DNA of 23,062 nucleotides from an uncultured bacterium. GTDB taxonomy: Bacteria > Vulcanimicrobiota > Vulcanimicrobiia > Vulcanimicrobiales > Vulcanimicrobiaceae. Below, in pieces: positions 20,024-22,656 of the stretch. The notes beneath the pieces are model-generated. The model was not told the DNA's origin. It saw only the letters and a program-made list of their open reading frames with translations, and ran no database searches. The first letter of the stretch is position 1, and the number at the start of each line of letters is the position of its first letter. The position numbers and the translations under genes are program-made. The stretch spans positions 1-23,062 of the forward strand of contig CAZRQS010000021.1 of NCBI GenBank assembly GCA_964602255.1, given 5' to 3'.

Positions 20024-20923
20024 CTACGCGGCTAAACGAAGGCGCTGCTGTGCCACAGATGCGATTGCTGTTGAGCCGAAGTCAAATGAAATGCGGTCAC
20101 TTTCGATTCCGTCTCCAAACAATACACCACCGTCGTTCATCATCGATCTAATCTGTAACGTGCTTCCGGTTACGAGCTCCCCCTCGGTGATTTCCGTAGC
20201 GAACCCACTTCCAGGAAATGCCTCACGGACGAAAAACACGAGGCGCGGTTCATCGGGACGCGGCAAAGGGAGCTCGGACCTGCGCTCAAGATGAATGGAG
20301 CGGGCCCAGCCGGTGCTTCCGGTGCCGGTACTCACGATGAGGCCGGAGGAGCTTTGGCGCTCTTGTCGTTCGGCCAACTTCAACTCATAACGCGCTGATT
20401 GGTGCGAATGATGTCCCATGAAAATCTCGTTGAGCGCGAGCAGACGCTGTCCGTCGTCCGTTTGTACTTGCACCATAGTGCGCTCTTGATACTCCGCTGC
20501 GCCATCATGTACTCGTTTTAGGACCGTCTCGAACCCTTGCGGTGAGTGTGGAACGAGTACACCTTCATACAAAGACGGATCAGGATTTACGCCGATTACA
20601 CTCTGTCCGTCAAGATATTTTGCGACGTTCGCCACGAGGCCATCCTGGCCCAACGCTACGACAATATCCTGTTTCTCGAATACAAACCGGTCCAGCTCTG
20701 ATCGGTCGAGGCGAATGCGGCGCCATGCGTGCGGCAGCGCTGCATTCACGGTATTGAGCGCGTCTACGAGCCTTTTGTGCTGTTCCTCGATCTTATCGAT
20801 TGAGAGACCTTGGTGTTCGAGAACGAACGCTGCTTGATTCCGCGTACCGTGCTCGGCGATAAGCGCTTCGTATTCGGTCGGGCGCGTGACGGTCACGGCA
20901 CGCGGAATCAATGCGGTGCTCAC
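20024..20923 (-). CDS. ATP-NAD kinase-family protein (NadK/PpnK-like, COG3199-type) with a divergent N-terminus (GQDG instead of GGDG)
   Basis: 'DIVVALGQDGLVANV', 'ALNEIFMGH', and the C-terminal beta-sandwich 'DGLIVSTGTGSTGWARS' (cf. NadK [21 protein letters not shown]). The GTG start has GAGG 8 nt upstream and begins 1 nt after the SPFH stop. Confidence 0.8.
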   Translation of the reverse strand: MSTALIPRAVTVTRPTEYEALIAEHGTRNQAAFVLEHQGLSIDKIEEQHKRLVDALNTVNAALPHAWRRIRLDRSELDRFVFEKQDIVVALGQDGLVANVAKYLDGQSVIGVNPDPSLYEGVLVPHSPQGFETVLKRVHDGAAEYQERTMVQVQTDDGQRLLALNEIFMGHHSHQSARYELKLAERQERQSSSGLIVSTGTGSTGWARSIHLERRSELPLPRPDEPRLVFFVREAFPGSGFATEITEGELVTGSTLQIRSMMNDGGVLFGDGIESDRISFDFGSTAIASVAQQRLRLAA

Positions 20924-20924
20924 C

Positions 20925-21902
20925 TTACGCCTCGGTGCGCCGGCCCTGCAAGAACTCGCTGATAAGCGGCGACAGGAGCTCCGGCGTGAAGTTGAGGTGC
21001 TCGATCTTGCCGATCTTGCCCGCGATATCGCGTAGCGCTAGCCCCAGCAAAACCGCGGTCGGCAAATCTTGATAGAGCTCCATGCGCGCGCGTTCTACTT
21101 CGGCTTTTGCGCCTTCCACGACGCGCACGTTTTGTGCTTCGGCGTCTGAGCCGATCTGCTGCGCGGCCGCTGCATCTTCGGCTTGCCGTTTCGCGTTCTG
21201 CCCCTGTTGTTCGAGGAGCTGTTCTTCGCGTTTAGCCAGTTCAATGCGATTCTGCATCTCGTTCTCCGAGATGGCGCGCTCCTTTTCTACCGCAGCCGCA
21301 CGGCGCGCATACGCCGCCTCATCCGCTGCTTGTTTTATCTGCTCACGGGTTGGCGTCTCGATTGCCTTTTCCAGGTCGGCCGACGGCTTCACTGATGACA
21401 CGCGGACAGAGCTTACCGCCAAACCGAGATCCTGGATTACCGGTGCGCTGGCAAGCGCATCCTGAAGTCGCGTGCGGATCTCGTCGATGCCGTTCACGAG
21501 GATCTCACGGATTGGCGTGCGGGCGATGTACGTGTTCGCAATCTCTTGCGTGAGATGAGTAAGAAGCAGTGCGATCTTATCGAGTGGCCGCTGCGTCCAT
21601 TCGCCAGTGGAAAGATCTATTGTGAAATCAACTCGTTCAGCGAGCCGAAGCGGATCGGCGGGCCGATACATGAGGATGCCTTGAATGGTAACGTCTTGGA
21701 AGTCTGCCGATCGCCCGTGCAGCATAAGCTGGACTTCCCGGTCATCCATCGGAATTTCCGCAATGCTATCGGACAGCGGAGAAAACCAGAACGATATGCC
21801 ACGCGCGCTGTGCTTGACGCGAGCGCCTCGCGAATGAACGATGAAGCTTGTTGAGTCGGAACGTAGGTGACTAACGAAAGGAAAGCGTCGAATCTCTGCC
21901 AT
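20925..21902 (-). CDS. SPFH/band-7 (stomatin/flotillin-like) domain protein, no N-terminal TM segment, with a C-terminal Ala/Glu-rich coiled coil
   Basis: SPFH core (FPFVSHLRSDSTSFIVHSRG...VQLMLHGRSADFQDVTIQGILMYRPADP) then a flotillin-like EA-rich coiled coil (EAAYARRAAAVEKERAISENEMQNRIELAKREEQLLEQQ). AAGGAG lies 9 nt upstream of ATG 21902. Confidence 0.85.
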   Translation of the reverse strand: MAEIRRFPFVSHLRSDSTSFIVHSRGARVKHSARGISFWFSPLSDSIAEIPMDDREVQLMLHGRSADFQDVTIQGILMYRPADPLRLAERVDFTIDLSTGEWTQRPLDKIALLLTHLTQEIANTYIARTPIREILVNGIDEIRTRLQDALASAPVIQDLGLAVSSVRVSSVKPSADLEKAIETPTREQIKQAADEAAYARRAAAVEKERAISENEMQNRIELAKREEQLLEQQGQNAKRQAEDAAAAQQIGSDAEAQNVRVVEGAKAEVERARMELYQDLPTAVLLGLALRDIAGKIGKIEHLNFTPELLSPLISEFLQGRRTEA

Positions 21903-21915
21903 GAGCTGTTTCTCC

Positions 21916-22656
21916 TTATAACTCGTTACGCACGTCGGAACGGAGGCGATACAAGCGCGCTGGCCGGTGTCCGACCTCGACTTGCATCTTACTGGTTGGT
22001 TCGATCCATCCCGAAGCGAGAATCGTTTTGCGGAACGAATCCTTATTTAACGTTTTGTTGAGTACGGTTTGATAGACACGTTGAATGTCGTAAAGCGTAA
22101 ACGCAGTCGGCAAAAGCGCAAAGCCGATGGGCGTATAGTTCAACTTGCCACGTATGCGCTTTATTGCGGTGCCCAAAATGCGTCCATGGTCGAATGCTAT
22201 CGGCAACTCTTTGCCTCCATGCCTAAGGCGTACGGCGCCGCCTTCCTCAGCACTCCATGGGATGTCGACCTGCGCGACAGTGACGTCGCGCTTTTCTACG
22301 CCGGCGAATCGATGAGCGTCGACGAGCGCATAGTATGCGATGCTGATGACGCGAGTTCGCGGGTCGCGCTTTAGTTCGCCGAATGTGTACAGCTGCTCGA
22401 GGAAGATGTCGGTGAGCCCGGCCTTTTCGCGCAGGACACGCGCGGCGGCGGCGTCGAGCGATTCATCCATGTGCACGAAGCCGCCCGGCAACGCCCATTT
22501 CTCCTTAAACGGATGCTCATTGCGCCGCACAACGACGGTCTCGAGCATATCCGCCCGTGCGGCGAGGACGACAACATCCACGGCGACGGAGGGGCGGTCG
22601 AAGTGGCTGGGGTCGTAATCGGCGAGGAACTGTGCCTCGGTGCTTTGCTTGGGCAT
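21916..22656 (-). CDS. nrtR: NrtR-family transcriptional regulator (Nudix-like ADP-ribose-binding domain + C-terminal winged helix)
   Basis: A Nudix box 'ALPGGFVHMDESLDAAAARVLREKAGL' and the NrtR-specific C-terminal wHTH signature 'AFTLYDIQRVYQTVLNKTLNKDSFRKTILASGWIEPT...GHRPARLYRL'. Confidence 0.85.
   Translation of the reverse strand: MPKQSTEAQFLADYDPSHFDRPSVAVDVVVLAARADMLETVVVRRNEHPFKEKWALPGGFVHMDESLDAAAARVLREKAGLTDIFLEQLYTFGELKRDPRTRVISIAYYALVDAHRFAGVEKRDVTVAQVDIPWSAEEGGAVRLRHGGKELPIAFDHGRILGTAIKRIRGKLNYTPIGFALLPTAFTLYDIQRVYQTVLNKTLNKDSFRKTILASGWIEPTSKMQVEVGHRPARLYRLRSDVRNEL

Follow-up and report, generated by a model that had tools for sequence, protein, structure and literature searches.

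A co-directional nrtR-nrtX-nrtY unit encoding an SPFH protein and an NADK2-type kinase-like protein behind a predicted NrtR operator

The three-gene unit, its operator and its regulator

The DNA analyzed here, referred to as the window, is the whole stretch of 23,062 nucleotides from positions 1 to 23,062 of contig CAZRQS010000021.1 (assembly GCA_964602255.1), which belongs to an uncultured bacterium of the Vulcanimicrobiaceae. Three open reading frames (ORFs) lie head to tail on its minus strand. They encode an NrtR-family repressor (nrtR, 22656..21916, 246 aa), an SPFH/Band-7 protein without a transmembrane anchor (nrtX, 21902..20925, 325 aa) and an NADK2-type NAD-kinase-like protein (nrtY, 20923..20024, 299 aa, GTG start); the names nrtX and nrtY are explained below. 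The original prediction, made from the letters of this DNA, had placed the same three genes here and had described them as a unit headed by NrtR, in which the SPFH protein looked soluble and the NadK-family protein was atypical and translationally coupled. All three ORFs were found as predicted, and the gene identities and junctions bear the description out. The nrtR stop codon is followed after 13 nt by the ATG of nrtX, with GGAG inside the spacer, and a single nucleotide separates the TAA of nrtX from the GTG of nrtY. Because the next downstream ORF is on the opposite strand, nrtY is the last gene of the unit. The DNA 3' of nrtY seems to be non-coding for about 300 nt, and a search there for an intrinsic terminator on the minus strand found no hairpin of that kind.

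Upstream of nrtR lies a perfect 21-bp palindrome, ATATATG-tcttcgg-CATATAT, with a TG-N7-CA core (22694..22674, minus strand), which extends to a 23-bp form of the 8-N7-8 type (22673..22695). It is the sole match in the window at 2 or fewer mismatches, with 0.03 expected by chance. Upstream palindromes had been part of the original prediction, and a perfect one of the NrtR type is indeed present in the nrtR promoter. According to Rodionov et al. 2008 (NAR 36:2047; PMC2330246), NrtR operators are palindromes of 21 bp whose core is GT-N7-AC or TG-N7-CA, and the mycobacterial NrtR operator is an 8-N7-8 palindrome (PMC6800001); the predicted window operator matches the published ones in silico in both geometry and core. 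A sigma-70-like promoter is predicted at 22699..22671 on the minus strand, with TTGACA at 22699..22694, a spacing of 17 nt and TATGCT at 22676..22671 (10/12 matches). It is the only minus-strand promoter match in 19700..23062, a consensus match only, with 1.6 expected there by chance, and what gives the call weight is where the site lies with respect to operator and nrtR start codon. The operator occupies the −35/−10 spacer and reaches into both hexamers. Only 14 nt separate the end of the −10 hexamer from the nrtR ATG, without an intervening Shine-Dalgarno sequence, so that the leader of the nrtR mRNA would be very short or in effect absent.

The product of nrtR consists of an N-terminal Nudix-fold sensor domain (Pfam NUDIX, 4.6e-12) and a C-terminal winged helix of the NrtR type (NrtR_WHD, 1.2e-20). 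Over its full length it matches Bacteroides AraR (5bs6, 2.9e-34) and Shewanella NrtR (3gz5, 6.7e-31) among PDB sequences. Against the NCBIfam equivalog NF050029 (ADP-ribose-responsive repressor NtrR) it reaches 171 bits, below the cut-off of 400. By these profile scores the window regulator is a member of the NrtR family, yet it stands outside the curated equivalog. In the Nudix box (GGFVHMDESLDAAAARVLREKAGL), REUxEE is replaced by RVLREK; the box is degenerate, and therefore the protein is probably a non-catalytic sensor. A degenerate Nudix box is also found in other non-catalytic NrtRs (PMC6800001).

Conservation of the SPFH-kinase pair and its link to NAD genes

Conservation of the pair was followed from both of its members: from the kinase in 85 non-redundant loci plus 4 annotated loci, and from the SPFH protein in those loci on metagenome contigs that had room for a neighbour. 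In 88/89 kinase-anchored loci the gene immediately 5' of the kinase gene encodes an SPFH protein of the same subfamily, the exception being a contig end. Conversely, the kinase gene lies directly downstream of the SPFH gene in 75/75 SPFH-anchored loci. The two genes are thus conserved as a unit, as the original prediction had supposed. The distance from the SPFH stop codon to the kinase start codon has a median of 1 nt; the genes overlap in 40/88 loci (mostly by 4 nt) and lie within 20 nt of each other in 40/88. Given this median gap, the SPFH and kinase genes are translationally coupled. A gene for NrtR adjoins the pair in 67/85 loci, in 37 of them co-directionally and in 30 divergently (the latter mainly in Actinomycetota), and in 56 of the 69 SPFH-anchored loci with room for it. 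When the neighbouring ORFs were clustered all against all, no cluster occurred in more than 13/85 loci, and the largest was inflated by high-GC shadow ORFs; no conserved fourth gene was found in this way.

The NrtY family comprises at least 7,963 clusters at 90% identity, and 422 clusters at 50% identity have E <= 1e-30. A scan of reference genomes confirmed at least 592 pattern-matching stretches, from which 80 loci spanning many phyla were kept; the taxa among the matches listed are Myxococcota, Actinomycetota, Alpha- and Gammaproteobacteria, Planctomycetota, Chloroflexota, Acidobacteriota and Eremiobacterota. Among plasmid and chromid records, 58 carry the cassette, and Rhizobium accounts for 42. 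Between species of Sphingomonas or of Nocardioides the cassette aligns at the DNA level and the flanks do not, while in Kribbella the flanks are syntenic. The cassette behaves as a portable unit. In two loci a tet determinant stands directly 3' of nrtY, namely tetR(H)-tet(H) in L093 (8927-10841; A. lwoffii pALWED1.1) and tet(J) in L094 (~7900-9828; Proteus mirabilis H110), and the nrtR-nrtX intergenic regions of these loci are laid out almost identically. A chromosomal context that included nrtR-nrtXY may have been the source from which tet(H)/tet(J) were mobilized.

A fusion of the two proteins was encountered once. P0307, which reads cleanly over 574 aa, carries GPDG and lacks the first strand of the kinase; it is a singleton on one 6.7-kb contig, and as support for a link between the two proteins it is weak evidence on which we do not rely. 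Two further candidates, P0373 and P0382, were rejected, their long out-of-frame stretches being those of frameshifted or chimeric assemblies or of gene-calling artefacts.

Three taxon-specific 21-bp boxes were found at the head of the cassette, all with the TG/GT-N7-CA/AC core of the published operators. The box ATATATG-N7-CATATAT belongs to co-directional loci, including the window; TTATCGT-N7-ACGATAA belongs to actinobacterial divergons, usually in two copies about 34 bp apart; and TTAGTGT-N7-ACACTAA occurs in Proteus, Acinetobacter, Rhizobium and a few others. A match was called strong when at least 12/14 half-site positions agreed. In the 1.21 Mb of kinase-anchored locus sequence, 73/77 strong matches lie in the cassette promoter region, and 3 of the other 4 lie upstream of nadM in two loci, L010 and L011, which are described below. 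In the independent set of SPFH-anchored loci (442 kb) the same was seen for 52/52 strong matches. L014, L081 and L084 likewise have a box in front of the SPFH gene, and no NrtR gene was found in their fetched flanks. In addition, a comparison of the Nudix boxes across loci indicates that two NrtR clades serve one SPFH-kinase pair. Co-directional NrtRs, that of the window included, have a degenerate RVLxxK box, while the actinobacterial divergent regulators (loci L022-L090) have an intact RELxEE box and may still hydrolyse ADP-ribose. Taken together, the conservation and position of the boxes, their occurrence before SPFH genes without an NrtR gene nearby, and the use of two NrtR clades on the same pair strongly support, in silico, the control of the SPFH-kinase pair by NrtR.

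A direct connection to NAD metabolism is provided by L010 (3767-8939) and L011 (~3863-8897). In both, the same strand carries the genes nadM (NMNAT-Nudix), nadV (NAMPT), nrtR, SPFH and kinase in this order, with the NrtR box in front of nadM and not of nrtR. The genes nadM-nadV are textbook NrtR targets. The original prediction had spoken of an NAD-linked module, and in these two loci the cassette continues a nadM-nadV operon. The tblastn matches to nadM, nadV and nrtR of L011 are split, which suggests frameshifts in this metagenome-assembled genome. Compared with the classical NrtR regulons (nadM-nadV, prs-nadV, nadABC, pncAB), the window unit has the same regulator family and the same 21-bp operator geometry with a TG/GT-N7-CA/AC core, and its relatives share an operon with nadM-nadV in the two loci just described. 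In contrast, the targets in the window are a putative NADP-forming kinase and a putative scaffold protein, not enzymes of NAD biosynthesis or salvage.

The pair had in fact been seen before. In their Table 1, Rodionov et al. 2008 (PMC2330246) give 'nrtX-nrtY' as predicted NrtR targets of unknown function, with the layout 'nrtR<#>nrtX-nrtY' in Proteus mirabilis, 'nrtR2<#>nrtX-nrtY' in Kineococcus and Frankia alni, and '#nrtR2; #nrtX-nrtY' in Streptomyces; in Hahella, nrtX-nrtY are placed in one regulon with pnuC-nadR and nadM-pncB. The main text of that paper names no protein families for nrtX and nrtY. The loci collected here reproduce these layouts in three of the listed taxa: in P. mirabilis (L094) NrtR is divergent from the SPFH-kinase pair and there are two boxes, Frankia (L083) has an NrtR/SPFH-kinase divergon, and Streptomyces (L081, L084) has a box upstream of the SPFH gene and no NrtR gene in the fetched flanks. 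From this match of organism and layout, and not from locus tags, we infer that nrtX is the SPFH gene and nrtY the NadK-like gene. The original prediction had held that neither SPFH proteins nor NAD kinases are members of the NrtR regulon. In substance that was wrong, and with the match to the 2008 layouts a claim of novelty for the pair as an NrtR target fails. Full-text searches of the literature found no study of the SPFH-kinase pair beyond this Table 1. Like the listed loci, which are two-gene operons behind an NrtR box, divergent from nrtR or at a separate locus, the window has nrtX-nrtY behind such a box; it differs in being co-directional and autoregulated (#nrtR-nrtX-nrtY), in its ATATATG-N7-CATATAT operator and in its degenerate Nudix box. 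The window carries a co-directional variant of the nrtR-nrtX-nrtY unit, which is not new as an NrtR target.

A role in defence was also considered, since the original prediction had suggested one. ADP-ribose is a product of NADase effectors. The cassette might confer anti-phage or anti-toxin immunity, in which ADP-ribose released by an NADase would derepress it and the SPFH-kinase pair would either kill or arrest the cell or rescue its pyridine-nucleotide pools. The patchy distribution would fit such a role, as would the alignment of the cassette without its flanks in Sphingomonas and Nocardioides and its presence on plasmids and chromids. In addition, one group of loci (L006-L008; 722-3390, 13417-15184) has the cassette between Tn7-like genes (TniB, Mu-transposase_C) and a CBASS-like pair of SMODS and S_4TM genes, the only defence-type neighbourhood among about 170 loci inspected. 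In contrast, a PADLOC search with the three proteins gave no match for the SPFH protein or the kinase and one weak match (1.1e-3) for the Nudix regulator, and tblastn found no homolog in 50,697 phage records. Linkage to defence islands was checked in 129 immediately flanking ORFs, where Pfam and PADLOC revealed no enrichment of defence genes: the Pfam families are of the housekeeping type, and the PADLOC matches are few, scattered and single, most of them to PD-T4-6 models. The syntenic flanks in Kribbella and the junction of the cassette with nadM-nadV salvage genes in L010 and L011 also speak against immunity. On present evidence the cassette is not a defence system, and we regard the immunity explanation as very unlikely.

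The SPFH protein and the kinase-like protein

NrtX matches Pfam Band_7 at 1.5e-15. Its AlphaFold2 (AF2) model (predicted local distance difference test, pLDDT, 79.9) consists of an SPFH domain at residues ~10-173, a single helix of about 100 residues (175-277) and short C-terminal helices, which are hydrophobic and conserved in alignment A2 of the family. The top Foldseek matches extend over about 300 columns and are HflK/C (7vhq, 1.7e-12), prohibitin (8rrh), erlin, stomatin, QmcA-YbbJ and flotillin. In a hydropathy scan for a transmembrane segment or N-terminal anchor none was found, the highest 19-residue Kyte-Doolittle mean being 1.17, so the description of the SPFH protein as soluble is upheld. 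In alignment A2 the family always starts with MAEI and runs straight into the SPFH strands. Judged from the model, NrtX has the protomer architecture of ring- and cage-forming SPFH proteins, from which an oligomeric ring or cage is a reasonable inference. The coiled coil differs in length among the homologs, with EA-rich insertions of ~10-75 residues after residue ~306 (A2 columns ~307-383); in an assembly of the cage type this would alter the height of the cage.

With the known SPFH-partner operons (HflK/C-FtsH, QmcA-YbbJ and other SPFH-NfeD pairs) NrtX has in common the combination of an SPFH domain, a long coiled coil and a C-terminal cap, as well as a place in a tight operon with one dedicated partner. 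It differs from them in having no transmembrane anchor, and its partner is a soluble enzyme of nucleotide-kinase fold, whereas theirs is a membrane protease or NfeD. Clustering of the neighbouring ORFs in the 85 loci yielded no conserved NfeD or protease partner near the cassette.

The identity of NrtY is less straightforward. No Pfam family, PF01513 and PF20143 included, matches it at E <= 0.01. The NCBIfam NadK models give 18-41 bits against cut-offs of 211-493, the best being 41 against 316. Among PDB sequences it matches human NADK2 (7r4j, 5.8e-12), and bacterial and archaeal NadKs at 7.5e-4 or weaker. Its AF2 model (pLDDT 90.5) has the two-domain NadK fold, and a Foldseek search returned NADK2 at 3.6e-22 with a TM-score of 0.74 and bacterial NadKs with TM-scores of ~0.6; the top 50 matches are all NAD kinases. 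The first ~70 residues, which the original prediction had called a novel N-terminus, are conserved throughout the family; the model places them within the usual N-terminal domain of NadK, and from residue 37 on NrtY aligns by sequence to human NADK2. That claim was overstated, since the segment is an NADK2-like form of the normal N-terminal domain.

A simple possibility is that NrtY is a housekeeping NadK ortholog that stands beside an SPFH gene by chance. It does belong to the NadK fold family, and some sources annotate it as 'NAD kinase' or 'NAD(+)/NADH kinase'. The curated models nevertheless decide otherwise: the E. coli NadK sequence used as a query was verified by its 567 bits against a cut-off of 386, a level to which NrtY does not come near. 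Furthermore, P. mirabilis H110 has, on its 4.09-Mb replicon, an nrtY-type gene at 3.28 Mb and also a canonical nadK (2.70 Mb), whose product shares 74% identity with E. coli NadK. Since both genes are present, NrtY is an extra paralog. No NrtY-type gene was found in 5,426 complete E. coli genomes, and the pairing with SPFH is obligate. A housekeeping identity is rejected on the model scores and the P. mirabilis paralogs, and we consider it extremely improbable; the description of NrtY as something other than a plain NadK stands. With canonical NadK/PpnK it shares the two-domain fold, the catalytic Asp, the NE motif and the glycine-rich nucleotide loop; it differs in failing every curated NadK model, in being accessory and patchily distributed, and in coexisting with the canonical enzyme in P. 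mirabilis.

The motifs of NrtY were compared with those of NAD kinases. GQDG is found at residues 92-95, as had been predicted, with the catalytic Asp94 kept and the second Gly replaced; the other motifs are IGVNPDP, ALNE (163-166) and SSSGLIVSTGTGSTGW (191-206). Both ALNE and the TGS loop align to NADK2. In the loop STGTGSTGW, residues T201, G202, G205 and W206 are invariant in alignment A1, as are N165 and E166, while S203 varies (S/A/G/C). A census of the phosphate loop in 270 family members gave GQDG in 200, GPDG in 38, GRDG in 7 and GGDG in 2; on these sequences, G(Q/P)DG instead of GGDG is a true family hallmark. Ohashi et al. 2012 (PMC3535332) described as signatures of NADK2/NADK3 a Ser at the position of Ppnk Asp189 and a Trp at that of C5orf33 Trp319. 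The stretch SSSG...TGSTGW of NrtY aligns to KSSG...TGSKAW of NADK2, and both signatures are present; the Trp was detected in 236/270 family members. NADK2/NADK3 motif 1, PX-GXN(T/S)DP, reads SVIGVNPDP in the window, with Ser for the first Pro and Pro for T/S, and GxNPDP occurs in 139/270 members. Among known enzymes NrtY is closest to human mitochondrial NADK2 (C5orf33), with plant NADK3: NADK2 is the best match by both sequence and structure, and NrtY shares the GxNxDP-type motif, a Ser where Ppnk has Asp189 and, within the TGS loop, Trp instead of Tyr (PMC3535332). The differences are a sequence identity of ~22%, GQDG/GPDG against GGDG, a length of 299 aa against 391 residues in the 7r4j chain, and the bacterial setting under NrtR control with an obligate SPFH partner.

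The altered loop raises the question of whether NrtY is an NAD kinase at all. G(Q/P)DG might signify changed chemistry, with another NAD-derived acceptor (ADP-ribose, NaAD or a signalling nucleotide) or another donor. Alternatively, NrtY might be a non-catalytic NAD(P)-binding sensor that controls an SPFH assembly; the assembly would then be the actual effector, perhaps acting on membranes or on proteostasis. The near absence of GGDG (2/270) would agree with this, as would the lack of a Pfam match and the scores far below all curated NadK cut-offs; an obligate SPFH partner is not known for any NAD kinase, and PGAP (the Prokaryotic Genome Annotation Pipeline) labels family members 'sugar kinase' or 'hypothetical protein'. 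In contrast, structural matches to NAD kinases throughout the top 50 and the conservation of the catalytic Asp, the NE motif, the TGS loop and the NADK2/NADK3-specific Ser and Trp argue for a kinase. Moreover, GGDG is missing in 7/65 C5orf33 (NADK2) homologues surveyed by Ohashi et al. (PMC3535332), the activity of those 7 being unreported, so that GGDG is not universal even in the NADK2 clade. Taking the two versions jointly, we think it unlikely that NrtY is something other than an NAD kinase.

Proposed function and genomic surroundings

The preferred explanation is that the unit encodes an accessory NAD(H) kinase that is derepressed by ADP-ribose and has a dedicated SPFH partner. An autoregulated NrtR repressor with a non-catalytic Nudix sensor would bind the 21/23-bp palindrome across its own −35/−10 spacer. 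ADP-ribose is a by-product of NAD consumption, and its build-up would release NrtR, by analogy with characterized NrtRs, which leave DNA on ADP-ribose (PMC2330246; PMC6800001). Derepression would yield two translationally coupled proteins, NrtX and NrtY. NrtY, as an accessory kinase of the NADK2 type, would most likely turn NAD(H) into NADP(H) and so supplement the response of NAD salvage and recycling with a branch that forms NADP; some genomes encode the nrtY cassette directly after nadM-nadV. NrtX would most likely form a ring or cage that scaffolds, localizes or gates NrtY. As a whole we hold this statement to be evenly balanced between right and wrong. Its parts differ in strength. An nrtXY operon under NrtR control is highly probable; NAD(H) kinase activity of NrtY, to which the fold and motifs point, is somewhat favoured; and a physical SPFH-kinase assembly, suggested by architecture and coupling, falls a little short of an even chance.

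Several points weigh against this explanation. Almost no member of the NrtY family keeps the second glycine of the GGDG phosphate-binding loop, and for this reason kinase activity, phosphate donor and acceptor should not be assumed. The window regulator is as similar to the arabinose-sensing AraR as to the ADP-ribose-sensing NrtR of Shewanella, and with the missed NF050029 cut-off this makes ADP-ribose a candidate ligand by analogy only. In 14/85 loci no NrtR gene lies in the fetched flanks (up to 8 kb). Beyond the singleton P0307, no fusion supports an SPFH-kinase complex, and we know of no precedent for a soluble kinase that needs an SPFH partner. Finally, biochemical or genetic data on any family member were not found in the literature.

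A more far-reaching version of the proposal can be formulated, which seems to us rather unlikely. The anchor-less ring or cage of NrtX would enclose or gate the NADK2-type kinase, and the system would fire only when ADP-ribose signals heavy NAD cleavage, as by NADase toxins, defence effectors or bursts of ADP-ribosylation; its action would be either to divert NAD(H) to NADP(H) or to modify a nucleotide derived from NAD. If so, this would be the first SPFH assembly to control a soluble metabolic enzyme, and, as a corollary, no prokaryotic family would stand closer to the eukaryotic mitochondrial NADK2 lineage than that of NrtY.

To our knowledge, NAD kinase is the only known route to NADP. The NrtY family would represent a second, regulated, NADK2-like kinase and, if active, an unrecognized control point of NADP(H) supply that is tied to NAD turnover. 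The strict coupled pairing with an anchor-less SPFH protein of the cage type could likewise reveal a new mode of enzyme regulation by SPFH proteins. A pair that was flagged as nrtX-nrtY in 2008 is now assigned to protein families, its pairing has been established in both directions and three operator classes have been defined, so that it has become directly testable.

A metal/redox cluster at 13628-19129 lies beside the cassette. By its Pfam labels it contains genes for a MerT-like protein (18755..19129, plus strand), an ArsR/HTH_5 regulator (18377..18745, plus strand), a divergent MerA-like pyridine-nucleotide disulfide oxidoreductase (within 16974..18515, minus strand), an ArsP permease (15690..16892, minus strand), a CMD protein (14986..15693, plus strand) and a second Pyr_redox enzyme (13628..15070, minus strand). 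MerA-type enzymes consume NADPH, and for that reason this neighbourhood might not be accidental, an argument that we offer as anecdotal. Between the MerT gene and the end of nrtY (19207-19990) there are a 130-aa ORF (19314..19706, plus strand) and a 58-aa ORF without a Pfam family. At the far end of the window, positions 1-13520 encode a GGDEF protein (121..1017), a Crp-like regulator (3035..3754) and an MGH1-like glycoside hydrolase (4537..7155), together with a HAD hydrolase, a xylose-isomerase-like TIM barrel protein, a DUF4432 protein, a GMC oxidoreductase, a MIP channel and a GH130 phosphorylase. This region is a carbohydrate-use neighbourhood, unrelated to nrtR-nrtX-nrtY.

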